This document shows positions 6,312 through 53,171 of a stretch of 64,000 nucleotides of DNA, piece by piece (within the stretch, counting starts at the first letter, position 1; each line of letters begins with the position of its first letter). Origin of the DNA: Escherichia phage SR02. The notes beneath the pieces were generated by a model. That model was not told the origin of the DNA and searched no databases. It worked only from the letters and a program-made list of their open reading frames with translations. Location of the stretch: the sequence record OQ870566.1; one strand, 5' to 3'. The position numbers were made by a program, and so were the translations under genes.

Positions 6312-6394
6312 TTCTGCTGTAGCTGTAAACTGCTGAGTAGCCCCCGTCGGAAGGCTTTCAACCGACGAAGGACTAACAGTTACGGTATCTACTG

Positions 6395-24713: not shown

Positions 24714-24789
24714 GCGCTCTTAGCTCAATGGATAGAGCAGTAGCCTTCTAAGCTATTGGTTACAGGTTCGAGTCCTGTAGGGCGCACCA
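24714..24789 (+). tRNA. tRNA-Arg (anticodon UCU)
   Basis: 76-nt cloverleaf folded by hand: acceptor GCGCTCT/AGGGCGC, D-stem GCTC/GAGC, anticodon stem GTAGC/GCTAT with loop CTTCTAA, T-arm ACAGG-TTCGAGT-CCTGT, encoded CCA. Confidence 0.85.
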
Positions 24790-29897: not shown

Positions 29898-31097
29898 ATG
29901 TTTCCAGTAACATTAGAAGATACTGAAGGTAATGTTTTAACGGTCAACCCTCCTTGTTATGGGTTCCTTCAGCTTCGCAACTATAACGGTGGCGTTGATG
30001 AAGACGATGACGAATATGATGACTACTTCGACCCTAACATGTATGAGGCAACTCATGGGTGGAATATGCACGTTCGAGTGTGGCATGAAGAAGCTAACGT
30101 TCGTAGTGCTGATGGGGAAGAGTTCCTGTTAAGCCGAGAGATGGATATGTGTAAAATCAAGCATATCTGGAACTCTGGAACTCATATGAAGATGTTAGGT
30201 TTTAGACGTTGGCGTGATGAAAAGCATGTAGCTGAAGCTTTAAGTTGGTGTTCGTATGAAGATGAAGACACACCTCCCAAGAATAACATTGAACGTTGGA
30301 ACGACAAAAACCCTGAACATCGAACCACACCTCGTGCTGTACTGGAAGCTATGGAAGCATTTGTGGACAAAGGTCGTCCCTCCTGTTTACGCTGGCACGA
30401 TAAAGGTTTTATGGGGGTAGCAACTGAGAACATTCCTGCTGATCGTTGTCTGTTCTATTTAATGTTAGACCGAACCTTCTATTGTGAAGATGAAGAGAGT
30501 CAAGTTGAAACCTTCCTTCATAAATGGTTGGTTGAGGGCTGGACAATCCTTCAGGCTTATGTTTACTCACGAATGGTTAGCACTTACACTAACCTCTTAG
30601 GGGAAACGAAAGCAACTCTGGTTGGTAATGATTGGGATGCTTGTATTTTCCCAGCGTCACTGTTTACAGTCGGCATGGCTGATAAATACGCTGAAGCATT
30701 TCAAGTTCCTTGGCGTCAACAGTCATATAGAGATGGGTGTGGTCATTTCCGTGATGAAGATTTTAAGTGGATTCATTATGAGAATGATGAAACAGCAGAG
30801 TTACGAGTGAACAACTCAATGTTCTTGCCGGTTATGCACCCTGATCTAGTAAAAGATGAGTCAGAAATACTCAAAGGTGACAACCTTCTGGTTACCTTTG
30901 CTCGTCGGGTATCTAAAGATGAAAGAACAGCTGACAGATTAGTCTACGCTTATCGCGCTGAGACTAAAGATATGTTCAACATCTACAACATTATTCAGCG
31001 ATTTAGTAGTGGAACTCTGGACCAAAGTTCGGAGTATTCAGTGATTCCATCCTCTGAGTGGGATGGTATTATGAGCGGATTATTTTTAGGAAAATAA
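29898..31097 (+). CDS. hypothetical protein (399 aa), first gene of the amidoligase island
   Basis: Long ORF; acidic N-terminal segment; no recognised motif. Confidence 0.6.
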   Translation: MFPVTLEDTEGNVLTVNPPCYGFLQLRNYNGGVDEDDDEYDDYFDPNMYEATHGWNMHVRVWHEEANVRSADGEEFLLSREMDMCKIKHIWNSGTHMKMLGFRRWRDEKHVAEALSWCSYEDEDTPPKNNIERWNDKNPEHRTTPRAVLEAMEAFVDKGRPSCLRWHDKGFMGVATENIPADRCLFYLMLDRTFYCEDEESQVETFLHKWLVEGWTILQAYVYSRMVSTYTNLLGETKATLVGNDWDACIFPASLFTVGMADKYAEAFQVPWRQQSYRDGCGHFRDEDFKWIHYENDETAELRVNNSMFLPVMHPDLVKDESEILKGDNLLVTFARRVSKDERTADRLVYAYRAETKDMFNIYNIIQRFSSGTLDQSSEYSVIPSSEWDGIMSGLFLGK

Positions 31098-31107
31098 AAG
31101 GTTAGTT

Positions 31108-32079
31108 ATGTCAATCTCCACAACGATCGTACCTCTGAATCTTCAACAAGATTTAGGGGAACAGAAGTTCTTAGGTCGTGGGTGCTTCGGTATCCACAAC
31201 TACATGCAAGGCCAGTGTGTAAATGATATTAATGGTGAAGTTATAACTGAAGAGGGGCGTTATAGACGCTTCAACCGTGATATCAACTTGCAATTGGAGA
31301 TGTTGAATTACTGGACTCACTCTTTTCACGGTCATATTGCATCTGATATTGAAAAGAACTTGGTTGAAACAGCAGACATTATGAACTCTATGTCTTGCTA
31401 TCGTGATGTATTTACGATCACTTCAGCGAATAGTGTTGCTGTCAACCTTCGTGAGCATCCAGCAGATCAGATCTTCACAGGACTTATGCTCTTCCGTAGT
31501 ATTCTGGAAGGGCAATATCGTGGAATGGATTTCCTAGCAGAAGGAATTGAAGACAGGGAAGAGTGGCTGAAGCGTAAACGCATCGGCATCGCTCTAGTGT
31601 TAGCTGGGTTGGGTCGTGACTTCTTCGGTGGATGGTCTCAACGAGGAAGAGCCAATGGGAGTAGTGAGAGCACCTCTATTGTTATTAACAACAATATGTC
31701 AGCAGCAGCATTCCTTCCTTTGGTTGTAGACTCTGATGAATACACGAAGCAAGTGTGGGTTCAAAACCCCTTCGGTGTTGGCGACAACGAGAATGGTTAT
31801 GTTCGTAACCATAACCAAGATGCCTTACGAAGATTTGCTCGTGCTAAAGATCAAGACCCGGACGAGTATGAAACAATGTCAGAGTGGTTAAGACTCTGGT
31901 CCAACTGTTATGGTCACAAACGTGAAGCAATAGACGACAAGTTGGGAAACATTACAGTACAAAACTTTACAGCCCGACTAATTCAGCGTACTGGTCCAAG
32001 CTCTGGCCTTACTACTGAAGAAGTTGGTAACACAATCTCATCTCTCTTTTCTGAACTAGTGGAGTATTACAATGACTAA
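31108..32079 (+). CDS. hypothetical protein (323 aa)
   Basis: Long ORF in the island; no recognised motif. Confidence 0.6.
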   Translation: MSISTTIVPLNLQQDLGEQKFLGRGCFGIHNYMQGQCVNDINGEVITEEGRYRRFNRDINLQLEMLNYWTHSFHGHIASDIEKNLVETADIMNSMSCYRDVFTITSANSVAVNLREHPADQIFTGLMLFRSILEGQYRGMDFLAEGIEDREEWLKRKRIGIALVLAGLGRDFFGGWSQRGRANGSSESTSIVINNNMSAAAFLPLVVDSDEYTKQVWVQNPFGVGDNENGYVRNHNQDALRRFARAKDQDPDEYETMSEWLRLWSNCYGHKREAIDDKLGNITVQNFTARLIQRTGPSSGLTTEEVGNTISSLFSELVEYYND

Positions 32080-32878
32080 GCGCAAATTCCTTATCGGCTC
32101 TGACCCTGAAATGTTTGTTCGTACCAGCAATGGTATTATCACCTCTGTGGCTGGTCTGTTAGGCTGTTCTAAGGACGATAAGATCACTCTGGCTAAGGAT
32201 GTTCGTCTTCAAGAGGACAACGTACTGGCTGAGTTTGATATTGACCCACAGAGCGGCTTTGAGGCGTTTAACGATAACATGCAACGTGGTATCGATCTCA
32301 CCAACAATGTCCTGAACAAACTGGACATGGAAACAGCTCCGGGTGTTAGCTCTCACATCTTCACTGAAGAAGAGATGAAGACTTTCAACGAATCAGCGTT
32401 CATCTTCGGGTGTACTCCTGATTTCAACGCTTTCACTGGTCAGAAGAATCCATCCCCGACTTCTCAGAATAAAGGGCTTCGTACTGCCGGTGGTCACGTA
32501 CATCTCGGCGTAGTTGGTGCTTTGGATATTACTTTGCAAACTCAGATGATGCTGGGTGTGCTGTGTGACTACTTCCTGTCCCTCCCAGCAGTTATTATGG
32601 ATAAAGATACTCGCCGTAAAGAACTGTACGGCAAAGCTTCTGCAATCCGTTATAAAGACTATGGTATTGAATACCGTTCACTGTCTAACTTCTGGATTAG
32701 TGATCGTGAAAACCGTAAGTTTGTTTACGATCAGGTTGACAAGGTTGTTCAGCAGTGTGATATGTCCACTCTGATGGCATTGCACTCTCGCCTTCCGATT
32801 GAGAAGCTTCATGAAATCATTAACGGCAACAACGTTAAAGAAGCGGACCAGCAGATCAAACTCCTTCAGGTAGCATAA
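32072..32878 (+). CDS. putative carboxylate-amine ligase (amidoligase-like paralog)
   Basis: GSDPE...RTAGGHVHLGV...EYRSL motif set resembling the HVH box and acidic metal ligands of the glutamine-synthetase-like fold; tentative. Confidence 0.4.
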   Translation: MTKRKFLIGSDPEMFVRTSNGIITSVAGLLGCSKDDKITLAKDVRLQEDNVLAEFDIDPQSGFEAFNDNMQRGIDLTNNVLNKLDMETAPGVSSHIFTEEEMKTFNESAFIFGCTPDFNAFTGQKNPSPTSQNKGLRTAGGHVHLGVVGALDITLQTQMMLGVLCDYFLSLPAVIMDKDTRRKELYGKASAIRYKDYGIEYRSLSNFWISDRENRKFVYDQVDKVVQQCDMSTLMALHSRLPIEKLHEIINGNNVKEADQQIKLLQVA

Positions 32879-32887
32879 GAGGTTATC

Positions 32888-33505
32888 GTGAGCTTAGTAG
32901 CTGATTTTTCTCATTACTATAATGGTACATGGATTGCTAAACGAGCAGGTAATATCAACCTTCCATGTTTTGTGATTGGTGTTGAGCAGAGCGGTAACTT
33001 CCGCAGCGATGACTTCTCTCACGAAGCAGAGCAGGCTCTGTATTTTGTTGTAGAGCAGTGGTACAAGAATGAGCAAGGGAATCTTCGAAACACTACGATG
33101 AATATTCCAGTGTTCGACCCAACCTTGATTCTTGAATCACCTGATGTTGGTTATCTGTTCCATAACGGTAACACTGTAAGCTGGACTCATATTAACCCTG
33201 TTCGTCAGAGAGCAAAGGGTTTGATGGGTAATAAGATTCGAAATGCTCCGGGTGTTGGTCGTGCCATCTCCGGGGAGATGGTTTACAGCCTGTTCAATCC
33301 TGAATTCGAGGGATTGGTTACTCGTTATATTTACATCAACCCTACTGATGGTAAGGTGCATTATAAAGGTGCACTGGTAGGACAAGTAGATCTGGAAGCA
33401 CCTCGTGACTCTTACGGTCAGCAATCAATGCGACTTCTGGAACACTTTCATCACATTTCTGAAAACCTTAGCAATTACAATATTACGTTGGTGGATTCGT
33501 TATGA
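32888..33505 (+). CDS. hypothetical protein (205 aa)
   Basis: GTG start, overlap-coupled. Confidence 0.5.
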   Translation: MSLVADFSHYYNGTWIAKRAGNINLPCFVIGVEQSGNFRSDDFSHEAEQALYFVVEQWYKNEQGNLRNTTMNIPVFDPTLILESPDVGYLFHNGNTVSWTHINPVRQRAKGLMGNKIRNAPGVGRAISGEMVYSLFNPEFEGLVTRYIYINPTDGKVHYKGALVGQVDLEAPRDSYGQQSMRLLEHFHHISENLSNYNITLVDSL

Positions 33506-34605
33506 CAACTGTAGCGCAAACTTTTGGATATCGAGAAGGTCGTTTAACTGAGGCGCATAGTTCAATTGCACTTCAGTGCGGTGTCGGTATTGAACTTGAA
33601 CTCGAAGGTTCCGATCATATCGAAGCAGATATGTGGGATTGTACAGAGGATGGTTCCCTGCGTAATGGTTGTGAAATGGTATGTTCACGACCTTACAACG
33701 GACAGGAGTTGTTAGACGCTATCAACAACCTGAGTGAAGCAGTAGCTGAATCGCACGCCGAGGGGACTTGGCGTTGCTCTACTCACGTTCATATGGATAT
33801 GAGGGATGCTGATAGTAATATCCTCAAGAAAACCATTCTCGCTTGGACCTTCTATGAAAAGATGTTGTTCAAGTGTTCAGGCTATCATCGTTACCGTAGC
33901 AACTTCTGCCCTGCGTTTGCAGTGGTACAAGCACAGGTAATGAATGCCTCTGACGCATTTAACTACGACGATGAAGAGTTCTTCAACCGTCTGGTTCGTT
34001 CATGGGATAAGTATACATCCCTGAACCTTCTGCCACTTGCCCAATACGGTTCGATTGAATTCCGTATCAGTGAGCCTAAGTGGAAACGTGGTCAACTTCT
34101 CAATCTGGTTAACCGCTTCTTGATGTTGAAGAAGCTGGCTTTAGATAACGCAGAGATGAGCAATGATCAGTTTATTGAGCATTTAAATACTGTACGATTT
34201 GCCCCAATGCTTCCTTACCTTCCTCTGGATTACAATCTGGACGAATCGGATTTGCATTCAGGGTATTGTATGGCCCGTGATGTTTTGTATTGCCGTTCTC
34301 ATGGAGTAGAGCAGTCTGGTCGTATTCGTTTACGTCGAACCAACTCCAACGGAGAAGTTCTTGTTGACTTACGTCTTATCTCAGACTTCTACGGATTCCT
34401 TGGATATGTACGAGGGAACGCTAACAACTTGTACCAAGAGATTCTGGTTATGCTTCGTACAACTGACCTATCTACTGTACGATCTGCACCAGAGCAACGT
34501 ATCCGTGCTATTTTTGACTTACTGCGTGAGTCAGGTCACAGTGATAGCAATATCACAGGGTACATTCCAGATCATCTGGAAAATCAGTTAGAGCAAGCGC
34601 TGTAA
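33502..34605 (+). CDS. amidoligase (Amidoligase_2-like carboxylate-amine ligase)
   Basis: GVGIELELEG...CSTHVHMDMRD...FRISEP motifs; genomic context with GAT-like and AIG2-like genes matches the family's known neighbourhoods. Confidence 0.6.
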   Translation: MTTVAQTFGYREGRLTEAHSSIALQCGVGIELELEGSDHIEADMWDCTEDGSLRNGCEMVCSRPYNGQELLDAINNLSEAVAESHAEGTWRCSTHVHMDMRDADSNILKKTILAWTFYEKMLFKCSGYHRYRSNFCPAFAVVQAQVMNASDAFNYDDEEFFNRLVRSWDKYTSLNLLPLAQYGSIEFRISEPKWKRGQLLNLVNRFLMLKKLALDNAEMSNDQFIEHLNTVRFAPMLPYLPLDYNLDESDLHSGYCMARDVLYCRSHGVEQSGRIRLRRTNSNGEVLVDLRLISDFYGFLGYVRGNANNLYQEILVMLRTTDLSTVRSAPEQRIRAIFDLLRESGHSDSNITGYIPDHLENQLEQAL

Positions 34606-34684
34606 TCAATGGGTGCCTCTGATAAAGGGGCACAATTTAAAGGTTAATTAGATGAAAGGGTTTACCCTTCAGGTGGATTAGAAA

Positions 34685-36715
34685 ATTTGTGGCATCGTAT
34701 TAGCTGGCGGTAATCTGTCAAGCACTGATTTAGATGTATTCAACCAACTCTTTTATGCTGGAGTGTTCCGAGGACAACATTCCTCTGGTATCTTTGGTCA
34801 GCGTAAGAGCACTAAGGAAGTCTTCACCTATAAAGAAGCCCTTCCTTCTTTCGCATTCATCCTTCAAGATGAGTACAAGAAGCACACCACTGGTGAAACA
34901 GCTTACACTGTAGCACCTTCATGGATTGTTGGTCATAGCCGTCATGCAACGAAAGGTGCAGTTAACGCCAAGAACGCCCATCCTTTCCAACATGGTAACA
35001 TCACTCTGGTTCATAACGGAACCTTGATGGACCAAGATCTGTTACCTGACAGCAAAAACTTCGAGGTAGACAGTGAGAACATCTGCCACTCTATTAACAC
35101 TATTGGTGCAGCAGAGACTATTCAAAAGCTGGATGGTGCTTTCACCTTAATCTGGCATGATGCTTCTGACAACCGTCTTCATATCATCCGTAACGAAGAG
35201 CGTCCATTCCATCTCGCACGTTGTAACAGAGATTGGTTTGGTGCTTCTGAAGAAGACATGTTGATGTGGATTCTGAAGCGTTCTAAGTCTCACAAGAACC
35301 GTATTGATGAGCACTTTGAATGTAAAGTTGGTACAGAGTATATCTTTGACATGTCAAACAACAGTATGACTCTAGTTGAAGAGGTCGCCCACGAGCTTCC
35401 GGTTTTTACGGTAATCAATCGTTGGGGCAATTACTACTCGAACAACTACAGCCAAAGCAATTATCAAAGTTCCTCAAAAAGCAGTACAAGCAATCCTTAC
35501 GACACGAAGCCGGGAGTGACAGCGGCAGACGTTCGTCGAAGAAACGCAGTGGTAAGTCAAAACAAAATCGCAAGCGATCGAAACATTGATATTCGCCGCG
35601 ATATGACTGTGGAAATCACACCACATGAGTTTATTCCTTATGCAACTGCTGGTGCTGTTCCTTCTCGTGGTAAGATGATCGGTTATATCTACGATGAGAA
35701 GTCTCAAGAGTATATCGAAGGTGATGTTCATAACGTAGACATTAAGGCTTATCAGGATGCCCTGAAAGACCCTAAAATTGTTTACCGTGGGACAGTATCC
35801 TGTATCTCCGAAGTTAATGCTATGGTTCGTTTAGTGATCACAGCAGGTCGTTTTGTTGACCCATCTCTGGAGAAAAAGGAGCCTGAGTCTACTACTGCTG
35901 ACTTTGATGATGATATCCCTTTTGATATGAATGATAGTTTCGTCAATAAGAATGGCGTTACTATCACTCGTAAATTCTGGGAAGCACACTCTCATGGCGA
36001 TTGCGGTGGTTGTGACAAACACATTGATTGGAAGGATGCACCTAAAGCAGTCTTCGCATATCAGTGCTATTGGCACCCTGAATGTCTGGAAGGTTTGACT
36101 AAACCTAAAGATGAAGAAGAGGAGGAAACTCCTATTGGTGTTTGTGAAATCTGCGGTGAAGTTAAAACAGAGAACGAGTTCGATGATGAACTTAGTCGTC
36201 TTCGTGGTGAAGATATCTGTAAAGTCTGCGCTGTAGATGTAAAGAAGAAAGTATCTAATGCTACAATCAAAGATGGTTATGTCTGGATTAAAGCAACAGA
36301 TACAACAAACGCCCGTCGTCCTGAATTTGCTTTACGTGTAACTGAAGATATGATTGGTCGTATGACTGTATTACCTTCCTCAGCGAAACAGACAGGCATC
36401 ACTCTGGAGGATGTTGTTGACGCTTATGTTGAGAAACGTAGCAACAGTATTTTTGCAATCTCAACTAAGCCAAAAAAGGAGGAACCTGCTGAGAAAGCAG
36501 GTGTGTTTCCTGAATCACGAACAGCTCTCCGCAAAACTGTTGTCAGCTTCGACGGAAACCGAAGCACTGACTTCACCAAAGCCATGTGGTCAACCCTCGG
36601 CTACTGCTCAGAGTGTTTTAAGCAGATTCCGTGGCGCGATGCTGAAAGTTGTACGCTTGGTTCTATGAATCAAGTTTATTGTAATTCTCCTAAATGTTCA
36701 TTGAATAGAGGTTAA
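34685..36715 (+). CDS. class II (Ntn-type) glutamine amidotransferase with C-terminal Cys-cluster domain; predicted AUU start
   Basis: Translation from 34685 gives (M)CGIVGLAG...GHSRHATKG...HNGTL...DSE; no in-frame ATG/GTG/TTG between the upstream stop and the catalytic Cys codon; AGGTGG 8 nt upstream of ATT. Confidence 0.7.
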   Translation: MCGIVLAGGNLSSTDLDVFNQLFYAGVFRGQHSSGIFGQRKSTKEVFTYKEALPSFAFILQDEYKKHTTGETAYTVAPSWIVGHSRHATKGAVNAKNAHPFQHGNITLVHNGTLMDQDLLPDSKNFEVDSENICHSINTIGAAETIQKLDGAFTLIWHDASDNRLHIIRNEERPFHLARCNRDWFGASEEDMLMWILKRSKSHKNRIDEHFECKVGTEYIFDMSNNSMTLVEEVAHELPVFTVINRWGNYYSNNYSQSNYQSSSKSSTSNPYDTKPGVTAADVRRRNAVVSQNKIASDRNIDIRRDMTVEITPHEFIPYATAGAVPSRGKMIGYIYDEKSQEYIEGDVHNVDIKAYQDALKDPKIVYRGTVSCISEVNAMVRLVITAGRFVDPSLEKKEPESTTADFDDDIPFDMNDSFVNKNGVTITRKFWEAHSHGDCGGCDKHIDWKDAPKAVFAYQCYWHPECLEGLTKPKDEEEEETPIGVCEICGEVKTENEFDDELSRLRGEDICKVCAVDVKKKVSNATIKDGYVWIKATDTTNARRPEFALRVTEDMIGRMTVLPSSAKQTGITLEDVVDAYVEKRSNSIFAISTKPKKEEPAEKAGVFPESRTALRKTVVSFDGNRSTDFTKAMWSTLGYCSECFKQIPWRDAESCTLGSMNQVYCNSPKCSLNRG

Positions 36716-36717
36716 GT

Positions 36718-36951
36718 ATGGAAATTCGTAAGATGATGCTGGATAACGTTGTAACTACTCGACGTATCCCGATGACGAGCACAGGATGTGATAACCTTCG
36801 TGCAATCCAGAAGTGGATGCAAGCTGGTATTGGTCAAGTACTTGAGACACAGGTTGAGGTTCCTTTCCCAACGGTGATCAATAACGTACTTGCTGATTAT
36901 GTAAAAATCAAAGGCATTAAGGTAGAACCTCATGTCAAATCTGGTTCCTAA
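36718..36951 (+). CDS. hypothetical protein (77 aa)
   Basis: ORF in island. Confidence 0.4.
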   Translation: MEIRKMMLDNVVTTRRIPMTSTGCDNLRAIQKWMQAGIGQVLETQVEVPFPTVINNVLADYVKIKGIKVEPHVKSGS

Positions 36952-37156
36952 GAAACCGAAGATCACTCTCCTACAATATTACATAGGAGTTCATATCGAA
37001 TTAGTAACGGAGCAGCGAAAGCTGTATCCGTTCGCTTTCGGTCTGATTGATGCACCATCCGATGAAGTAGAGAACGACGCGTTCAACGACTACTTCGAAA
37101 TTGAAGCTCAGATTCAAAAAACTCGTAACGAAATTCTTAAACTTAAAGGTATCTAA
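36932..37156 (+). CDS. hypothetical protein (74 aa)
   Basis: ORF in island. Confidence 0.4.
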   Translation: MSNLVPKKPKITLLQYYIGVHIELVTEQRKLYPFAFGLIDAPSDEVENDAFNDYFEIEAQIQKTRNEILKLKGI

Positions 37157-37158
37157 CA

Positions 37159-38355
37159 ATGACTACTCGTATCCGTGTTCTTCCTTATGGCCCTTCTGAT
37201 TCAGTTCGTGAACTTACTTCTGCAATTAACACTAAGATTCAGGAACTTCGACTAAATGCTAACGTAATGTCTCTGGTATCAGAAGGCTCTCGTTATCGTT
37301 CTCGTGTTGGTGATATTGTTGTCAACTACGGAAACCGTCGATACAACGACTCTTTCTTTGGTGGCGCAACTGTGTTGAACTCTGTGGTTGCCTTGAACCG
37401 AGCGGCTAACAAAGTTGCAGCATTTAACGCACTGCGTTTAGCTGAAGTCAAAACTGTTGAATACACCGTCGATCGTGAAGTAGCTCAGAACTGGAACCGG
37501 AATGAAATTGTTTATGAACGTGGAACCTTAACTGGTCACTCTGGAGAAGGTATTACTGTTCGTCTTACGCGAGAAGGTGTTGCGGATGCTCCTCTATACA
37601 CCAAAGGCATCCAAGGCCCACGTCGTGAATGGCGTGTTCATGTGTTCGAAGGTGTTATCACTTACGTTCAGAAGAAGATTCGTCGTAATGGTTATCGTGA
37701 ACTGGAAAGTTATCGTGAAGATATTCGTAACCATCACACTGGTTGGGTTTATTCTAACTCCTTCACTGAAGCGCCTCCTGATCAAGTTCTTATTCAAGCT
37801 CACAAAGCTGTATCTGCTCTGGGTTTGAACTTCGGTGCTGTTGACCTGATTAGCAAAGGTACTAACGCATGGGTTCTGGAAGTTAATACAGCTCCGGGCC
37901 TGACTGGCACAACTCTGGAAACCTACACTCACAACATCGTTGAGTTTGTTAAGAGTTTCTCTGGTGTTGATCCTGACTACCGCGTTGCTTACGAACTGCC
38001 TGTTGAAGAAGTGGAAGAAGAATTTGCTGAATCGGCAGATGACGAAAACTTTGCATTGGCAGCTGAGCCAGTTGCTGAAGAGTCTTCGGAGCCTGTTCCT
38101 GAAACAATGCAAGTTGAAGAACAAGGGTTAGAGATCAACCCGGTAACCCGTCGTAATCTGCGTCGTGGTTATTATATCGCTAACATCAAGCATCCTGAAA
38201 ACGGTTCGACTGTAGCAAGTAACGTGATCTTGTTCTTCTGTGGTCGTAACTTCTACCGCTCTGGATGGAACGCACCAATTAGTGATCGTCAGCTTGGTCG
38301 TGTGTTGCAGATTAATAGCCTTACCCTGAATGATGGCACTGTTGTAAACTACTAA
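37159..38355 (+). CDS. ATP-grasp family ligase
   Basis: GAVDLISKGTNAWVLEVNTAPGLTG ATP-grasp signature; acidic C-terminal tail. Confidence 0.75.
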   Translation: MTTRIRVLPYGPSDSVRELTSAINTKIQELRLNANVMSLVSEGSRYRSRVGDIVVNYGNRRYNDSFFGGATVLNSVVALNRAANKVAAFNALRLAEVKTVEYTVDREVAQNWNRNEIVYERGTLTGHSGEGITVRLTREGVADAPLYTKGIQGPRREWRVHVFEGVITYVQKKIRRNGYRELESYREDIRNHHTGWVYSNSFTEAPPDQVLIQAHKAVSALGLNFGAVDLISKGTNAWVLEVNTAPGLTGTTLETYTHNIVEFVKSFSGVDPDYRVAYELPVEEVEEEFAESADDENFALAAEPVAEESSEPVPETMQVEEQGLEINPVTRRNLRRGYYIANIKHPENGSTVASNVILFFCGRNFYRSGWNAPISDRQLGRVLQINSLTLNDGTVVNY

Positions 38356-38361
38356 GGATAT

Positions 38362-38610
38362 ATGGATATGTTTTCATTGGAAGATCTAGTACAAAATGGA
38401 ATGATGGAACAAAAAGAGCCTCTGATTGTAGGCTCTCGTAAAGAGTTGCGTAAATTGTGTGAGGAGTGGGGTATTACTAATCAGCGAATGATTGGTAATC
38501 AATTCTCTGCAATTGTAACTTTCCTAAAACGTGGTGATAAGTATTCTATGGAATGTGTAGAACGTATCATCGCTGAAGCACAACAAGATAAAGGAGTAAC
38601 ATATCTGTGA
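38362..38610 (+). CDS. hypothetical protein (82 aa)
   Basis: ORF in island. Confidence 0.45.
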   Translation: MDMFSLEDLVQNGMMEQKEPLIVGSRKELRKLCEEWGITNQRMIGNQFSAIVTFLKRGDKYSMECVERIIAEAQQDKGVTYL

Positions 38611-38813
38611 ATAAGTATAAAGTCCTGTTTAAAGATACCAATGCAGCTGGCGAAATGCGAGCAATGGATATTGACGCTGAATACTTCCGAAGTGAGCTTG
38701 ATCAGATAGTATTCTATGAGCGCGGTAGTCGACCTGCTAATGAATCAGAAGTTATTGCTTCATTCGGTAAAGAAGCAATCTGCGGTGTAATCAAAATCTT
38801 TATTACAGAGTAA
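38607..38813 (+). CDS. hypothetical protein (68 aa)
   Basis: GTG start overlapping previous stop. Confidence 0.35.
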   Translation: MNKYKVLFKDTNAAGEMRAMDIDAEYFRSELDQIVFYERGSRPANESEVIASFGKEAICGVIKIFITE

Positions 38814-38882
38814 TCTGCTCTAGTCTCTTCGAAAGAGGAGGCTAGTTCGGATAAACTAAACAAACCAACAAAGGTATAGATA

Positions 38883-39302
38883 ATGTCAGAAGTAATTTAC
38901 GTAGCAACTTATGGTTCTCTTCGTCGTGGTCAAGCTAACTATCTAGTTAATGACCGAGCTGGTGCTAAGTCAATTGGTGAAGGTTGGACTGAAGACAACT
39001 TTGATCTGTTCCGCTATGGTGGTTCCTACTTCCCAAGCATCTCTCTCGCACACAGCAATAACAATAAGCCTGTTCGTGTAGAAGTGTTTGCTACTGACAA
39101 AGCAGGTCTGGAAGGTCCATACGATCGTCTGGAAGGTTACAATAAACGTAGCCCTGAAGATAGCTTCTATCAACGAACTCAGATTGCCGTTAAGCTGGAC
39201 TCAGGTGAAACTGTTATCGCTTGGATTTATCACATTGACGAAGAACAAGATGTTCTGGTTGAATCTGGCGACTGGTCAGAGTATCTGAAAAGTGAATCTT
39301 GA
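38883..39302 (+). CDS. gamma-glutamyl cyclotransferase-like (AIG2/GGCT family) protein
   Basis: N-terminal YVATYGSLRRGQANY matches the AIG2 YGSL/TL motif; 139 aa size typical. Confidence 0.6.
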   Translation: MSEVIYVATYGSLRRGQANYLVNDRAGAKSIGEGWTEDNFDLFRYGGSYFPSISLAHSNNNKPVRVEVFATDKAGLEGPYDRLEGYNKRSPEDSFYQRTQIAVKLDSGETVIAWIYHIDEEQDVLVESGDWSEYLKSES

Positions 39303-39521: not shown

Positions 39522-41312
39522 ATGTCAAAGATCATTTTGGGAGACACAGGTTGTAAGGAATGTATCTCTCATGGTCGTGATAAAACCCACAACCACATGA
39601 TTCTCTTCCGTAACGAAGAGACAGGTGAGGAGTGGGGAAGTTGTAACCGTTGTGGGAATTACGAAGTGTTCGAAAAGGGCACTACACCTACTCCAAACGA
39701 GAAGAAAGAGTTGTCCCCTGAAGAGTTAAGAGAAGTCTTAGATGATTGCTTAGAGCTTCCTCAGGGTGAACTCACTCGACGTTTAATCCCTAAAGCCGTA
39801 TCAGAGCGTTTTGAGTGTCGCATTGGTCTAAGTCAGACTGATGGTCAGACTCCAGACAGCTACTTCTTTCCTCGTGAACGTGATGGAAACATTGTCGGTT
39901 ATGAGGTTAAGCTGCTTGACAGTAAGAAGTTCTATTACGTTGGCAGTGTGAAAGAAGCAGATTTATTTGGTATGGCACAGGCTCAGCGTGGTGATGTGTA
40001 CAACAAGAAGCTCTTCATTTTTGAAGACCCGCTATCTTGTATGTCTGGTTTCCATGTCCTTACAGCTTTTACAAATGCAACAAACATTAAACCAGCATGT
40101 GTTTCTTTACCGTTCGGTGCAGGTTCAATCTCTTCTGTGTTGTCTCGTAATCGAGACTTCGTAAATGGTTTTGAGGAGGTTGTGCTCTGCATGGACAACG
40201 ATGATGCAGGTGAGATAGCTTTAACAAAAGGTCGTTCTTTATTCCCTCATGTTAAATTTGCTCGTATCCCTAAAGGAACTTTCCCATACAACGGTGTGGA
40301 GAAAGAGATTAAGGATGCGAATGACATGCTTCTGTCTGGTCGTGGTCAAGAGTTATTCAACATTCTCAAGTACTCAGCAAAGCGGGAATCTCCTGCTGGA
40401 GCTGTAACAATCTTTGATTGCCTTGATGATGCTCTGAAGAAAGCGGAGTGGGGTATCCCATATCCGTGGAAGACTCTGAATGAGATGACCTTCGGTATTC
40501 GATGGGGAGAGGTGGTAGCAATCGGTGGTGGTGTAGGTAGTGGTAAAACATTAATTGCTCACGAACTTGTTGCTCATCTGTGCTTAGAGCATGGTTTTAA
40601 TGGAGGTGGCTTCTTCTTGGAAGAGAAGGTAGGCATGTCTGTTAAGAATATCGCTGGTAAGTCAGCATCAATCCCTTTCCACCGACCTGATGTTGAATAT
40701 GACGAGGAGGATTTGCGTAATGAAGCACTTCGTTATGCAGACAAATTCTTCTTGTATGACAACTTCGGGCAGAATGAATGGGAAGACATTAAACAGTGTA
40801 TCCGTTTCTGGGTAGTTGAAAACCAGTGTAAGTTCATCATCCTTGATAACATTACCGCTCTGGTATCTCATTTAACACCTTCAGAAATTAACACCGAAAT
40901 TAGTAAGATTGCTTCCGAGCTTGCTGGTATGTGTAAAGAGTTAGACTTTACCGCTTTCGTACTATCTCACCTTAATGCTCCGGCAGGTGGTGCTCCTCAC
41001 GAAGAAGGTGGACAGGTACGTGAAGTCCAGTTCACTGGCTCTCGTTCTCTTATGCGTTGGTGTCAGTGTATCATTGGCTTTGAGCGTGACAAGCAAGCTG
41101 ATGGCTTAGCTAAGAACCTCTCAGTCATTCGATTACTGAAAGAACGTAATTACGGTCAGACGGGTGTCTGCTATACTAAGTATATCAGTGAAACCGGTAG
41201 ACTTGTAGAAAGGGAAGACTTTGAAGTTGATGAAGATAATCCATTCGTTTTAACTAACGGAGAGGATGCAGCTTCTCTCGTCAACCAAGCAGATGGAGCT
41301 TCACCGTGGTAA
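39522..41312 (+). CDS. DNA primase/helicase (T7 gp4-like)
   Basis: AGGAGG RBS; N-terminal zinc ribbon CKECISHG...CNRCGNY; central primase-like region; Walker [10 protein letters not shown] and IILDN Walker B. Confidence 0.9.
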
Positions 41313-41860
41313 AGAAAAAGAAAGTGTTTGCATTCGATATCGAGAGTAATGCACTGTACGATGACATAACTAAAGTGTGGTGTATTTACATCTTCGATGT
41401 TGAAACTGGTGAAAGGTGGGGCTATCGGCCTCACCAAATTGAAGATGGGATTCGTAAACTTACAGAAGCTGATGTGCTCGTAGGTCATAATATTATTGAC
41501 TTCGACCTTTGTGCTCTGAAGAAGATGTATCCCAATCTGATCGACTATCGTTTTAACGTCTTTGACACTTTATGTCTTAGTCGATATCTTAAACCTGACC
41601 GTATTGGTGACAGTCCTGAGTATCCGAAAGGCGACCCTAGACATGGCCCAAGAGGTCATGGCTTGAAGCAATGGGGTGAGTTCTTAGAGGAACTTAAAGG
41701 TGACTACGGTGAGCAAGAGGAAGCATGGGATGCTTTCACTGAGGATATGTTTACTTATTGTGAACAGGACGTTAACTTAACTGTTAAGGTTTATCTTTTC
41801 TTGTGTGAACTCACGGGATTTGACCCTTACGACCCACCTTCATTATATTGGAAAATGTAA
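41306..41860 (+). CDS. 3'-5' exonuclease (DnaQ-like), T7 DNA polymerase exonuclease-domain homolog encoded separately
   Basis: Exo [11 protein letters not shown], Exo [11 protein letters not shown], Exo [16 protein letters not shown]; by recalled T7 gp5 sequence aligns to its first ~190 residues; likely start is the GTG at 41324. Confidence 0.8.
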
Positions 41861-41861
41861 A

Positions 41862-43160
41862 ATGATTGTTATCCCGATTAACCGAATTGAAGATAAGGTT
41901 GCTCAACAACCTGATATCACTGTTGGTCGTCACTTTATTGAACAGTTGATTAACAACAACTTGATTCCAGATTGTATTTGTCCCATCATCACTGGTGGGG
42001 CTGTTCGTGATGCTGTTCTTAATAATAGAGCACCTCATGACATTGATATCTTTATTGTCAGAGGACAGGCACCAAGAACCCAAAATACTTTTATCCATCA
42101 TGACCAGTGGCAAGATCTCGGACGAGAGGTTGAAAGTAATGTGAAAGAGTGGCTCGAGTCTCAAGATATTGAGTACTCTTCCCTTCTTGCTGAATCTACA
42201 GATGAGCCGTATACTGGGACTTCTCAACTAACATTCACTGATATTATTGAGTTTCAGTGGAATGGGGTTCGTATCCAATTCATGTTTAACTATCCTACTT
42301 CTATTGAAGAGGTATTGGATAATTTTCCTATGATGTGTCGTGGTGCGATGACTCTTGACAAGCTGTTCATGACCCCCCATGGATATTTGTCTATGACCTC
42401 TCCTTGTCCAGTAGTTGTCTCTGGTCGTGAAATCAAGTATGTTCACAAGAAGTGGCCTAATTCACAGGTATTAAGATTCTCCTCTCCATCTGTTGCATAC
42501 CAATATATGGCACAATCTCGATATCTTCCTACACCTCAACCAGTTAATCATCTGGTCAACGAACGAGGTCAGGTTGCTCTTATTGAGGATACAACAAGTG
42601 CTCAGTATTGTGTTGACCGTGACATGAGTCGATTCTTTGGAATCCCTTATGAAGAGATTCAGTTAATGTCAAGCACACATGGCTCTAGCCAGATTCATGC
42701 GTATTGGTCTGAAGGGTTGACAAATTTAACAACTAACACGGGTGGTGATCTACTTGGTCGAGAAGAGGAACCTAACCGACACAATGCAATTGAAGGGGTG
42801 TTTGTAGCCCCTGCAATGCGTAGAGCACAAGAGTCACGAAGAGTAAGCCCTACTCGTAGAACATCTTTTGAAGAAGCTCTTGGTATTACAAGAGATTCTA
42901 TGGAGAGATGGATGGCTAGCACCTCTCGTGGTCGACCAAATGGTTTGACTGTCAGCCGTCATCAGTTCTCTGGTCAGGGCTTTGCTGTTGGCGATCTTGA
43001 TATTCCTTCTCATGGTGAGCTGGCTGAGACTGTCAGTCGCAGTCTCGCTGATCGCTTTGTTGCTAACAACCCTGAAGTATTAGAACCTCAAACCCGTACA
43101 GTTCGGTTTGCTGATGAAGCGGGTCGTGGAATCTCTTTTGACGTAGAAACAAATAACTAA
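41862..43160 (+). CDS. nucleotidyltransferase with CCA-adding-enzyme / poly(A) polymerase-like head domain
   Basis: IITGGAVRDAVLNNRAPHDIDIFIV matches the class II tRNA-NT/PAP head motif GGAVRD...D.D; remaining ~330 aa unassigned. Confidence 0.6.
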   Translation: MIVIPINRIEDKVAQQPDITVGRHFIEQLINNNLIPDCICPIITGGAVRDAVLNNRAPHDIDIFIVRGQAPRTQNTFIHHDQWQDLGREVESNVKEWLESQDIEYSSLLAESTDEPYTGTSQLTFTDIIEFQWNGVRIQFMFNYPTSIEEVLDNFPMMCRGAMTLDKLFMTPHGYLSMTSPCPVVVSGREIKYVHKKWPNSQVLRFSSPSVAYQYMAQSRYLPTPQPVNHLVNERGQVALIEDTTSAQYCVDRDMSRFFGIPYEEIQLMSSTHGSSQIHAYWSEGLTNLTTNTGGDLLGREEEPNRHNAIEGVFVAPAMRRAQESRRVSPTRRTSFEEALGITRDSMERWMASTSRGRPNGLTVSRHQFSGQGFAVGDLDIPSHGELAETVSRSLADRFVANNPEVLEPQTRTVRFADEAGRGISFDVETNN

Positions 43161-43169
43161 GGAATAAGA

Positions 43170-43724
43170 ATGAGTTTACTAGGAAGCCCAGAGTTACATA
43201 AACTAATTGATGATGGTGTTATTGATGCACCACACTCAGCTGTTAACTCCTCCAGCATTGACGTCCGTATTGGAGATCGTGTTCTGATGGAAGGTGCAGC
43301 TAATGGGGTTGTTGATATCTCTGCTAAAGAATCTCCTAACTTCAACGAGGTTATGATTCCAGAGGAAGGGTTGGTGATCAAACCGGGTGAGTGTTTCTTG
43401 GCTCATACAGTGGAGACATTCAATCTTCCAGACAACATTAGCTGTGACTTCATGCTACGATCTACTGTCGGTCGTTGCTTCTTAGAGCACATGCACGCTG
43501 GTCATGCAGATGGCGGTTGGCATGGCAGTCAGTTAACTATGGAATTCAAGAATGTCCTACAACATCACTCTCTTCTGATCAAGCCGGGGATGCGTATTGG
43601 TCAAATGGAGTTCTTTAAACACTCCTCATCCGAAGAGGACAGTTACGCAACGAAAGGTTCATATAATAACCAACAAGGGCCGACAAAAGCTTTTGGTGGA
43701 ACAAACCATGCTGATATGCTATGA
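43170..43724 (+). CDS. dcd: dCTP deaminase family protein
   Basis: SIDVRIGD, PGECFLAHTVE, LRSTVGR and MEFKN motifs in the order found in Dcd/dUTPase-fold enzymes. Confidence 0.75.
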   Translation: MSLLGSPELHKLIDDGVIDAPHSAVNSSSIDVRIGDRVLMEGAANGVVDISAKESPNFNEVMIPEEGLVIKPGECFLAHTVETFNLPDNISCDFMLRSTVGRCFLEHMHAGHADGGWHGSQLTMEFKNVLQHHSLLIKPGMRIGQMEFFKHSSSEEDSYATKGSYNNQQGPTKAFGGTNHADML

Positions 43725-44217
43725 TGAAGTAGTTGACCTCTTTAATATAGACATGTCAGCACCTTCAGGGCTTTCTTGGAAAAGGAAGCCTAGTAAGTTT
43801 GCTAATGATATAGTAGGTAAACCTGCTGGTAAGCTCACAAAAGATGGATATTATCAAATTCCCTTAGGAGGAGTTCGTGTCCATAATCATAGGATTCTTT
43901 TTGTTCTTTATACTGGTGAGGATTTATCGGATGAATATCAAATAGATCATGCTGACGGTAATAGAGAAAACCTAGAAGAAACTAACCTGAGAAAATGCTC
44001 TCACTCTGAGAATAGTCAGAATGCTAAGACAAGGGTTGATAACAAACTAGGAATCAAGAATGTCTACCGAGAGAAAGGTGGAACGTTCTGTGTATCTGTT
44101 CAAAAAGACGGTAAACGTGAGTCTGTATATGGGGTGAAAACTCTTGAAGAGGCTAAGATTTTGGCTAAGTCTATGAGAAGTAGACTTCATCTCTCCTTTA
44201 ATGTGGATGAAAGATAA
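43708..44217 (+). CDS. HNH homing endonuclease with AP2-like DNA-binding domain
   Basis: HNHRILFVLYTGEDLSDEYQIDHADGNRENLEETNLR HNH core; C-terminal AP2-like GKRESVYGVKTLEEAKILA; overlaps dcd 3' end. Confidence 0.8.
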   Translation: MLICYDEVVDLFNIDMSAPSGLSWKRKPSKFANDIVGKPAGKLTKDGYYQIPLGGVRVHNHRILFVLYTGEDLSDEYQIDHADGNRENLEETNLRKCSHSENSQNAKTRVDNKLGIKNVYREKGGTFCVSVQKDGKRESVYGVKTLEEAKILAKSMRSRLHLSFNVDER

Positions 44218-51326: not shown

Positions 51327-53171
51327 GTGAGCAACCCGGACGCTCTCCCATTTTTGACAGAGATGACTGTCGCTGATATAATCTCTAAGCAAGCAAAGCA
51401 CGGAGTGAGTTTCAACCGAAGAAATGCTCGGTGGTATGTTCACCTCCTTAAAGAGATTATTGTTAATATTGACAGAGAGTTGATTCCTCTCTTACCTAAG
51501 ATGAGATTAGATGGCTCTACTTATATGAAGCCATTTAAGAAGTCTGGAGCTTTACAGAAGTGGCCCCAAGCCTATTGCGATAGGGTTGGCCTTAAGAGAG
51601 AAGACATTGGTGGAGCATTCACCTGTGTCGAATACGTAGACTTTGACCCATCGAAAGATGCACGAGTTAAAGAAGCCCTTATGGACGAGGGTTTTCTTCC
51701 TCCAGAGTTTAATGTATCAAAGAAACCTTGGAATACTTTTGAAATCAAGAAAGATATGAAAAAGTATGGAACATACCAAGCGTGGTATTCAGCTTGGATG
51801 CGAGGTAATGCTAAGCAGAAGCAGACAGCCGAGATGGTTGACGCTGATATTAGGAAGTTCTTAGAAAAGCATTTTAGGTTTAAAACTAAGAACTACATGA
51901 AGGCTTATGTATTTGGTTTAGGTTTAAACCCTAACCGACGTAGACCTATCACTTTTGATGAGATTAAGATAGCACTAGCTACCTCAAACAAGTGGCCTAC
52001 AGCTCCTACAAACCTCGAAGAGACTCTTGAAGAAGGGTTAGGGGGTGAGCTAGGGAGTGTCGGAAGTTTGCTTAAGAGACGCGTTGTAGCGGCTCACAGG
52101 TTAGGTCTTATTAGTGGACTCATAGCAAAGGAGCGCGAAGATGGTAAACTTTCGGCAGAAGCTAACAGCTGTGCTACGCCGACTTTTCGATTCAAACATC
52201 GTATCGTGGTTAATATTCCCTCCCGTGGTTTGTTTGGTCACGAGTGTCGCAGTTTGTTTGAATCTGACTATAACTCAGATGATGATCACTCTCGTCCTTT
52301 CGTTATTACTAACGTTGTTCCTGATGGTTGTTATATACGAAAAGGTACTAACGTAATTTATGAGAAAGGTAAGCCGGGGAAGAAAGACAAACCTGTAGGT
52401 GCTTACAAATATTACATACCCGCTGGTAAAGAAGTATTCTTAGGGTATGATGGTTCTGGATTAGAATTGCGTATGCTCGCACACTACCTCATTAAAGAGT
52501 GTAGGGACATGCTTGCTGAAGCAATAGAAGAGAATAACCCAGCTAAGAAAGCTCTGGCAGAACGTGGTTTAGCTTCTGCTATTATGTATCGTGATATTCT
52601 CCTTGAAGGTGATATCCACTCCCACAACCAGAAACTTGCTGGTCTTCCTACTCGCGACAACGCTAAGACGTTTATCTACGCATTCAACTATGGTGCTGGT
52701 GATGCTAAGCTTGGTTCAATTGTAGGTGGTGGGGCTGACGAAGGTTCAGTGATGCGAGCACGTTTCTTGGCAGAGAACCCATGTATTGCAATCCTCATTG
52801 ATCGTATGACAGAGAAAGCTGCTCAAGGATACTTGATTGGTGTTGATGGTCGTAAGATTACAATGAGACGGGATGCCACTGGTAAGGTTATGGTTCATAA
52901 AGCACTTAACACTCTCCTGCAATGTGCTGGTGCTGTTGTTATGAAATATGCTATGATGTTCCTTAACAAGTGGATTGAGAAAGATAAGGTTCGTTGTGCT
53001 AAGGTAATTGATATGCATGATGAAGGTCAATTCTCAGTGAACCGTAATGATGTACAGAAGCTAAAAGAGCACACCGAGCTTTGTGTTAAGAAGGCTGGTG
53101 AGTACTTGAAGATGGAATGCCCTCTGGCTTCTGATTGTCAGATTGGACTTAACTGGATGCACACACACTAA
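51327..53171 (+). CDS. DNA polymerase, family A polymerase domain (T7 gp5-like), lacking its own exonuclease domain
   Basis: Motif A YDGSGLELRMLAHY, motif B RDNAKTFIYAFNYGAGDAKLG, motif C IDMHDEGQF; close match to recalled T7 DNAP palm and fingers. Confidence 0.9.
   Translation: MSNPDALPFLTEMTVADIISKQAKHGVSFNRRNARWYVHLLKEIIVNIDRELIPLLPKMRLDGSTYMKPFKKSGALQKWPQAYCDRVGLKREDIGGAFTCVEYVDFDPSKDARVKEALMDEGFLPPEFNVSKKPWNTFEIKKDMKKYGTYQAWYSAWMRGNAKQKQTAEMVDADIRKFLEKHFRFKTKNYMKAYVFGLGLNPNRRRPITFDEIKIALATSNKWPTAPTNLEETLEEGLGGELGSVGSLLKRRVVAAHRLGLISGLIAKEREDGKLSAEANSCATPTFRFKHRIVVNIPSRGLFGHECRSLFESDYNSDDDHSRPFVITNVVPDGCYIRKGTNVIYEKGKPGKKDKPVGAYKYYIPAGKEVFLGYDGSGLELRMLAHYLIKECRDMLAEAIEENNPAKKALAERGLASAIMYRDILLEGDIHSHNQKLAGLPTRDNAKTFIYAFNYGAGDAKLGSIVGGGADEGSVMRARFLAENPCIAILIDRMTEKAAQGYLIGVDGRKITMRRDATGKVMVHKALNTLLQCAGAVVMKYAMMFLNKWIEKDKVRCAKVIDMHDEGQFSVNRNDVQKLKEHTELCVKKAGEYLKMECPLASDCQIGLNWMHTH

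Follow-up and report, generated by a model that had tools for sequence, protein, structure and literature searches.

Gad2, the second anti-Gabija protein of the SPbeta-like phages, is 400 amino acids long and carries a nucleotidyltransferase domain predicted by AlphaFold2; when it is knocked out, the phage SPbetaL7 becomes sensitive to Gabija, a defence that co-expression of a Brevibacillus homolog inhibits (Yirmiya et al., bioRxiv 10.1101/2023.05.01.538930). A nucleotidyltransferase has also been singled out in the BASEL paper on the Gordonclarkvirinae, which are unusually resistant to restriction-modification (RM) through no known mechanism, and a role for this protein in DNA modification has been suggested (Humolli et al. 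2025, PMC11990801). The present work is concerned with the gene for such a protein in Escherichia phage SR02 (sequence record OQ870566.1), a phiEco32-like podophage, within a stretch of 64,000 nucleotides which is referred to below as the window, and whose DNA is 88-94% identical to that of many Kuravirus genomes. The gene is, by synteny, the positional ortholog of phiEco32 gp73 (phi32_73, “hypothetical protein”), and the replication and nucleotide-metabolism cluster of phiEco32 consists of middle genes (PMC8948821).

The annotation of gp73-type genes as nucleotidyltransferases is already public and is not new. Labelling as a class II-type nucleotidyltransferase goes back to about 2012-2014, both in GenBank and in the SU10 paper, several GenBank records of relatives carry the same name, and PHROG 12715, “nucleotidyltransferase”, matches the window protein with E=5e-239; the 100% identical protein in the SR02 record is labelled a hypothetical protein, and NCBIfam holds nothing useful for it. 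What the present analysis adds to this annotation is that the CCA-adding label is misleading for this gene, that the nearest functionally tagged relative of the protein appears to be Gad2, and that the gene behaves like an arms-race accessory gene which occupies a variable slot in an otherwise highly conserved T7-like replisome module.

We tentatively propose that the protein is a Gad2-like accessory enzyme, probably a counter-defence nucleotidyltransferase, and we read it neither as a core replication enzyme nor as a tRNA-maturation enzyme. The protein would consist of a catalytically competent head of the Pol-beta superfamily, of class II (CCA-adding / poly(A) polymerase) descent, and it would belong, together with Gad2 and the small PolyA_pol-head proteins of T7- and phiKMV-like phages, to a phage-specific radiation of “head plus short neck” proteins. 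Using two-metal-ion chemistry, it would transfer a nucleoside or deoxynucleoside monophosphate (NMP or dNMP) from a triphosphate to a hydroxyl acceptor; it would be co-translated with the exonuclease subunit of the polymerase in a middle-gene replication module, its disordered tail with two conserved short motifs would probably dock it to a partner, and nucleotidyl transfer would neutralize a nuclease-based host defence in the manner proposed for Gad2. An accessory role in host interference or counter-defence is preferred because the slot which holds the gene is variable in sister phages, and because the divergence of the gene greatly outpaces that of its neighbours.

The catalytic assignment was evaluated in an alignment of 43 family members with a mean column identity of 25%, in which the conserved part corresponds approximately to residues 1-250 of a protein whose homologs range from 274 to 482 amino acids in length. 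The nucleotidyltransferase-type motif that a preliminary description of this DNA had located here is confirmed as GGAVRDAVLNNRAPHDIDIF, residues 45-64 of an open reading frame (ORF) of 432 amino acids, and it conforms to the class II motif A pattern GGxVRDxxL...DxD, aligning both to GGAVRD...PHDVD of the solved CCA-adding enzymes and to Escherichia coli Cca and PcnB. Residues M1, G45, G46, R49, D50, D60, D62, F64, Y117, I128, Q139, P156, Y193 and K197 are invariant in 43 of 43 sequences. All 25 of the diverse homologs whose alignment was printed in full have D or E at position 127, which falls on a beta strand in the structural model; by reference to the Pol-beta fold, D127 would be the third catalytic carboxylate. 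The family thus carries the superfamily signature, a helix-turn with G[GS] followed by a strand that bears DxD and, further on, by another strand that supplies the third carboxylate, and since the Pol-beta-type catalytic set (motif A, D60 and D62, an acidic residue at 127) is complete, an active enzyme is likely. We hold with high confidence that the window protein is an active Pol-beta nucleotidyltransferase whose head is of class II ancestry.

The relationship of the head to class II enzymes was evaluated using both sequence profiles and structure prediction. The search with Pfam PF01743 (PolyA_pol head), which the preliminary description had proposed, does recognize the head, at residues 43-127 with E=4.7e-4, but the score of 20.9 bits (22.0 for the isolated domain) falls short of the gathering score of 23 bits; 12 of the 43 family members match this model at E<0.01, and none of them scores higher than the isolated window domain. 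A single-sequence search of PDB sequences gives nothing meaningful, and the family profile finds CCA-adding enzymes in the PDB at E=0.0027 through 27 residues of motif A only. When 1.84 billion representatives were searched exhaustively with HMMER at E<=1e-3, only 31 clusters were obtained, among which no canonical CCA-adding enzyme is present, and word-indexed homolog searches return close relatives only. Because the full-length AlphaFold2 model, with a predicted local distance difference test (pLDDT) score of 48 and values below 50 for residues 246-432, is too poor for a fold search, residues 1-260 were remodelled using the more diverse alignment of 43 sequences, which produced a confident model (pLDDT 88; predicted template modelling score, pTM, 0.84). 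When this model was compared with the PDB using Foldseek, the top 39 matches were all class II enzymes. The preliminary description had taken the motif for a class II head-domain signature, and motif, family conservation and predicted fold all bear this out; the structural modelling that it suggested likewise returns a class II-like PolB-type head fold.

The features by which class II enzymes recognize their substrates are a different matter. In the 25 printed members motif B, which serves in recognition of the ribose 2'-OH, is never RRD; its equivalent is LDNFPMMCRG, from which both arginines are absent and in which, over the DNFPMMCRG stretch, only P156 is invariant, the residues preceding F155 varying across the family. 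Motif D (EDxxR), the amino-acid template for CTP and ATP, and the RxxRF helix are not found either, in that no alignment is obtained to the EDPLRVLRVARF region of Cca and PcnB. Comparison of the family by hhalign with a profile of E. coli Cca and PcnB, which has limited sensitivity because it consists of two sequences, gives a probability of 14% over 26 columns of motif A only. A Pfam scan at E<=10 reports PF01743 alone and nothing over the region past the head, using a copy of Pfam that holds no Gad2 model, so that a genuine Gad2 is given no family in the same scan. The alpha-helical body and tail domains that bind tRNA or an RNA primer are absent, as is indicated by the disorder and length variation of the corresponding region and by homologs of only 274-300 amino acids. 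Because the window protein has neither the RRD that senses the ribose nor the EDxxR that templates the base, and no body and tail with which to bind tRNA, we are fairly confident that it is not a canonical CCA-adding enzyme.

These observations bear directly on the possibility, favoured in the preliminary description, that the enzyme adds CCA to tRNA 3' ends or repairs them, rebuilding or tagging acceptor ends damaged by host tRNA-targeting defences. Motif A, a predicted head fold that is closest to class II CCA-adding and A-adding enzymes, and the presence of one tRNA gene on the phage are what such an enzyme would lead one to expect, but in addition to the missing motifs and domains, the match to PHROG 2244 (“tRNA nucleotidyltransferase”) extends over 24 residues only (E=0.018), the gene is absent from sister phages, the host has Cca, and the tRNA-Arg(UCU) gene of the phage, the only tRNA gene in the window, encodes its own CCA since its sequence ends in ...GGGCGCACCA, that is, in ACCA. 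We regard a role in tRNA repair as very unlikely. The proposed tie between 3'-end repair or tagging and the phage tRNA thus finds no positive support, and the additional tRNA-like element that accompanied this proposal is detected neither by ARAGORN nor by Rfam (at gathering thresholds) anywhere in the window. The further suggestion that the gene counters host defences is plausible by way of the relationship to the anti-Gabija protein Gad2, although not by way of tRNA.

That relationship emerges when the family is compared by hhalign with a Gad2 profile built from nine homologs in the supplement of Yirmiya et al. The resulting alignment has a probability of 89% (E=2.3e-6) and covers 100 columns, from motif A to the substitute for motif B, where FPxxC is paired with FDFTVC. 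A permissive alignment, in which the confidence of individual columns is low, also pairs P183..R189xxxY193xxK196xW198 with YPxxSxLRVxKYxxKGY of Gad2. Gad2 in turn aligns to Cca and PcnB over 185 columns with a probability of 75%, FDFTV being paired with RRDLTIN and the YP..LRVxKY helix with EDPLRVLRVARF, which indicates that Gad2 is itself a class II derivative without RRD and EDxxR. A precomputed match to Pfam PF26128, “Gad2”, is found on most close homologs and is marked weak (best E between 1e-5 and 1e-3), and PHROG 1614 forms a bridge, in that the window family and Gad2 both match it at similar E-values. The window protein matches only PHROGs 12715, 1614, 10174 and 2244, and the Gad2 proteins match PHROGs 18122, 27100, 16176 and 4400. 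Judged by these profile comparisons, Gad2 appears to lie closer to the window family than Cca and PcnB do; the family is not, however, orthologous to Gad2, but forms a separate branch within the phage radiation to which both belong.

Other members of this proposed radiation are found among small phage proteins. In BFVD, many phage “PolyA_pol head” proteins of 170-230 amino acids are structural neighbours of the window protein, with E-values from 1e-8 to 1e-4. One protein of this kind, ORF16 of Pseudomonas phage LKD16 (199 amino acids; GGAARD...PRDIDL, FDYTLNQ), is encoded between the helicase and ligase genes, its gene overlapping the end of the former. The window family aligns to LKD16 ORF16 with an hhalign probability of 36%, and with a probability of 93% to a 186-amino-acid homolog from an unrelated high-GC viral contig (locus L020), which is the best single-sequence bridge from the window family to the small phage nucleotidyltransferases. 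The gene in question, at 5860-6486 of that locus, encodes a head-only nucleotidyltransferase of 186-208 amino acids (GGAVRDAL...DYDVF, FDWHVSRF, LRRGFRFSERFG), and it lies in a neighbourhood of apparent recombination genes, between an ORF of 206 amino acids and ORFs which, from translations read by eye, resemble a YqaJ-type exonuclease, a DNA methyltransferase and an HNH protein.

The genomic position of the gene combines a conserved order with a variable occupant. The order primase/helicase (gp75), exonuclease subunit (gp74), nucleotidyltransferase and dCTP deaminase (gp72) recurs in relatives whose nucleotidyltransferase is only 28-36% identical, where the contig context was read with a close homolog in place of the exact SR02 protein. 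The start codon of the window gene, an ATG, lies one base past the TAA of the exonuclease gene, this spacing is 0-1 bases in all relatives examined, including Bas89, and the dCTP deaminase neighbour is kept in all of them. The exonuclease subunit (184 amino acids) matches only residues 3-178 of the T7 DNA polymerase gp5 (E=2e-10), and together with a separate gene for the C-terminal part this identifies it as a component of a split T7-like PolA rather than an RNase D-type RNA exonuclease, which rules it out as an RNase D-like partner in tRNA 3'-end turnover. The other subunit gene of this split family A polymerase, at 51327-53171, encodes 614 amino acids that match the C-terminus of T7 gp5; the two subunit genes are ~9.5 kb and some twenty genes apart, and the existence of the second rules out the window protein as the missing polymerase domain.

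Within this conserved arrangement the nucleotidyltransferase changes far more quickly than the proteins around it. In the wider relatives it is 28-36% identical, compared with 77-95% for the primase/helicase and 70-99% for ThyX. Between the window and Suseptimavirus-type genomes the identities are 31-34% for the nucleotidyltransferase, 93-95% for the primase/helicase, 79-88% for the exonuclease subunit and 80-99% for ThyX, and the respective values within Kuravirus are 81-89%, 99-100%, 96-99% and 98-100%. Against five Kuravirus orthologs, the rate of nonsynonymous substitution (dN) exceeds that of the helicase by a factor of roughly 10-100, and its ratio to the synonymous rate (dN/dS) is 0.13-0.23 compared with 0.00-0.04 for the helicase, so that the gene is under purifying selection; within the gene, the head has a ratio of about 0.11 and the tail one that reaches 0.46. 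A nucleotidyltransferase of this family is found in 97 phage records, and a helicase at least 80% identical is likewise found in 97, the comparison being one of counts. In sister phages whose helicase is 55-57% identical, the slot is empty or otherwise occupied: in Proteus phage Privateer nothing separates the exonuclease gene from the dCTP deaminase gene, in SE131 the slot holds a 37-amino-acid ORF, and in APT65 it holds an unrelated protein of 131 amino acids. The nucleotidyltransferase is therefore dispensable for this type of replisome. A variable slot, retention throughout a lineage and fast change under purifying selection are together the usual signature of a gene for host interaction or counter-defence.

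The gene next to this slot has a history of its own. The dCTP deaminase encoded in the window shares 100% identity with those of Bas89 (Suseptimavirus) and an IMG/VR viral locus (L013), but only 58-59% with the phiEco32-type Kuravirus alleles, the switch in similarity beginning at 43159, at the nucleotidyltransferase stop codon. The 100% identical allele is always accompanied by an HNH homing-endonuclease ORF (43597-44217, 93% identical in Bas89 and in the IMG/VR locus), which overlaps the 3' end of the deaminase gene, and the mosaic allele (43170-44217) looks like the product of homing-associated co-conversion.

The C-terminal tail introduces two further explanations of the protein. Among close homologs it varies in length and contains indels, and it is absent from the homologs of 274-300 amino acids, but it includes two short motifs in which, between the Kuravirus-type and Suseptimavirus-type proteins (about 31% identity), the residues listed in Table 1 are invariant; distant homologs again contain an aromatic-[ST]-x-G-[LR] motif, as well as R-x-[ST]-F, which is sometimes located at the very C-terminus. 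These motifs are probably docking peptides for a partner. The tail is acidic overall, and an Arg-rich segment at residues 317-372 (isoelectric point, pI, 11.9) is the sole basic stretch of the protein. Net charge and pI were considered as an argument against polynucleotide binding and were found to be uninformative, the head and neck of E. coli Cca being equally acidic. If the basic stretch holds RNA, the protein could be a 3'-tailing enzyme like poly(A) polymerase, which would add tails to transcripts of the host or the phage, or to RNA primers, and thereby alter their stability; this we consider very unlikely, on a par with tRNA repair. The aromatic tail motifs lend themselves instead to a mainly structural or regulatory replisome accessory factor, tethered by the tail to the polymerase, the helicase or the host single-stranded DNA-binding protein, with catalysis secondary. 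Such a factor would be consistent with the one-base junction with the exonuclease subunit that is kept in distant relatives, with the aromatic or acidic C-terminal end of many homologs, and with the location of related small nucleotidyltransferases beside the helicase in phiKMV-like phages, but an enzymatic function is favoured by catalytic residues that do not vary within the family, the same replisome type functions without the gene in Grimontviridae, and the tail is modelled at pLDDT <50. We give a structural role of this kind very little credence.

A stronger competitor of the counter-defence proposal is connected with RM resistance. The window contains 10 EcoRI, 29 EcoRV, 5 EcoKI and 82 EcoP1 sites in 64 kb, at or near expectation, although relatives are reported to resist these four systems, and avoidance of these sites is thus ruled out as a trivial cause of the resistance. 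Some other sites are depleted: CCWGG occurs 9 times in positions 1-64000 against roughly 65-80 expected, GATC occurs at about half of expectation, and PstI, SacI, BamHI and SphI sites, along with several GC-rich palindromes, are absent from the window. The published suggestion and the resistance phenotype (PMC11990801), together with the unavoided RM sites, would be accommodated by a DNA-modification enzyme which, possibly with the help of the dCTP deaminase, introduces a covalent modification into the phage DNA or primes the DNA for it. The gene is present in every Gordonclarkvirinae record, its place in a replication and nucleotide-metabolism module is conserved, with translational coupling to the exonuclease subunit, and loss of the RRD ribose sensor would permit deoxynucleoside triphosphates or DNA as substrates. 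This explanation is nonetheless unlikely. The phage encodes ThyX and a dNMP kinase and has a GC content of 42%, which together allow the deaminase to be explained by ordinary dTTP supply and so speak against a version that involves dU-containing DNA; sister phages possess the dCTP deaminase without the nucleotidyltransferase; and a fixed chemistry has no obvious need to drift to about 30% identity where replisomes are 93-95% identical. Moreover, no DNA-hypermodification pathway is known to involve a nucleotidyltransferase with a class II-type head.

A combination of the two ideas, in which a replisome-coupled Gad2-like nucleotidyltransferase is the missing factor behind the RM resistance of the Gordonclarkvirinae, either because it nucleotidylates phage DNA, or the 3' ends or nicks of that DNA, or because it makes a nucleotide product that disables nuclease-based defences, must be rated as rather a long shot. 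If it were true, it would provide the first biochemical mechanism for the Gad2-like clade of head-only nucleotidyltransferases, including those in T7- and phiKMV-like modules. An enzyme that underlies RM resistance would explain the phenotype of Kuravirus-type phages, popular as candidates for therapy and broad in their plating host range, and it would offer a handle on a widespread and uncharacterised clade of phage nucleotidyltransferases; if the protein is merely a lineage-specific enzyme of nucleotide metabolism, the finding is ordinary.

Several considerations weigh against the proposal of a Gad2-like counter-defence enzyme. The relationship to Gad2 is remote, with a Pfam match that is only weak; the PHROGs of Gad2 are not matched by the window protein, and the C-terminal domain of Gad2 (~190 amino acids, about residues 210-400) is absent from it. 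In motif A the family (GGAVRD) is closer to class II enzymes than is Gad2 (GGxITS), and the distance to class II may be overstated by the use of a two-sequence class II profile. Functioning “like Gad2” is in any case not a defined mechanism, and in the literature covered, experiments were found neither on phiEco32 gp73 nor on how Gad2 works. PADLOC returns nothing, and Gabija was not among the systems of the BASEL phenotyping panel for the Gordonclarkvirinae (PMC11990801). Part of the elevated divergence may be due to recombination beside the homing-endonuclease hot-spot, and retention of the gene in every Gordonclarkvirinae genome, with its coupling to the replisome, also fits a lineage-specific core function such as DNA modification.

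The positions of the features discussed are collected in Table 1. A scan for promoters and terminators around the gene finds them at chance level. A sigma-70-like pair of hexamers (TTGACC, 18 nt, TATATT; 10/12 matches) is located at 41820-41849, within the 3' end of the exonuclease gene and just upstream of the nucleotidyltransferase ATG; it may mean nothing, the number of such sites in the region being that expected by chance. Upstream of the replication genes, a cluster at 29898-39302 encodes a COOH-NH2 ligase, an amidoligase, a glutamine amidotransferase, an ATP-grasp ligase and a gamma-glutamyl cyclotransferase; it is kept in distant relatives, in Privateer and in APT65, and suggests that a compound of peptide or amide type, either a metabolite or a modification, is synthesized.

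Table 1. Features of the nucleotidyltransferase gene and its surroundings, in window coordinates
Feature	Position	Strand	Basis
Nucleotidyltransferase coding sequence, complete, 432 amino acids and stop	41862..43160	+	ORF list and sequence
Folded catalytic region, residues 1-260: N-terminal helix pair, Pol-beta-type head, short neck-like helical part	41862..42641	+	
Motif A, residues 45-64, GG turn and metal-binding aspartates D60 and D62	41994..42053	+	conservation, alignment
D127, candidate third catalytic carboxylate, on strand of residues 125-133	42240..42242	+	D/E conservation, model
DNFPMMCRG, residues 153-161, corresponding to class II motif B (RRDFTINA) and to “FDFTVCMG” of Gad2	42318..42344	+	hhalign
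Neck-like helix motif P183-x5-R189-x3-Y193-x3-K197-W-P (family consensus RDxxYxxKKxP)	42408..42458	+	Y193 and K197 invariant
Tail, residues 261-432, predicted disordered, variable length	42642..43157	+	pLDDT, indels, short homologs
Short motif AYWSEGLTNL, residues 280-289, candidate docking peptide	42699..42728	+	W282, L286 and L289 invariant
Short motif TRRTSFE, residues 331-337, in basic stretch	42852..42872	+	R332 and F336 invariant
3'-5' exonuclease subunit of split T7-like DNA polymerase (gp74), upstream	41306..41860	+	T7 polymerase match
dCTP deaminase (gp72), downstream neighbour	43170..43724	+	annotated orthologs, Pfam DCD
tRNA-Arg(UCU), only tRNA of the window	24714-24789		3' end ...GGGCGCACCA

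Compared with the class II enzymes (PF01743 head; Cca and PcnB; PDB 1miv, 3h37, 3aql and 4wby), the window protein lacks RRD, EDxxR, the helical body and tail and the HD domain, its profile similarity is confined to 26 columns, its C-terminal 170 amino acids are predicted to be disordered and its Pfam score is sub-threshold. With the small “PolyA_pol head domain” proteins of the Autographiviridae and other phages (PHROG 1614, matched at E=8e-8) it shares the architecture of the head, motif A and a place beside a gp4-type helicase in a T7-like replication module, but those proteins, which are equally uncharacterised, are half its size and have neither the conserved N-terminal extension nor the disordered tail, and the similarity beyond motif A is marginal. 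With the MenT and AbiEii toxins, which modify tRNA acceptor ends, it has in common a Pol-beta nucleotidyltransferase core and the addition of nucleotides in phage-host conflict, the latter insofar as the proposed function is correct. Among functionally tagged proteins, Gad2 offers the closest comparison. Both are phage-specific proteins that appear to combine a class II-derived head with a short neck and that lack RRD and EDxxR; both have an F-[PT]-x-x-C-x-G substitute for motif B and possibly an R-x3-Y-x2-K-x-[YW] neck motif; and both belong to acidic families with short (about 200-280 amino acids) and long forms. They differ in that Gad2 has a folded C-terminal domain where the window protein has a tail predicted to be disordered, in that motif A reads “VRD” as in class II enzymes in the window protein and “ITS” in Gad2, in their PHROG families, and in their setting, which for Gad2 is a dedicated anti-defence locus in temperate Bacillus phages and for the window gene is the replication module of virulent coliphages.

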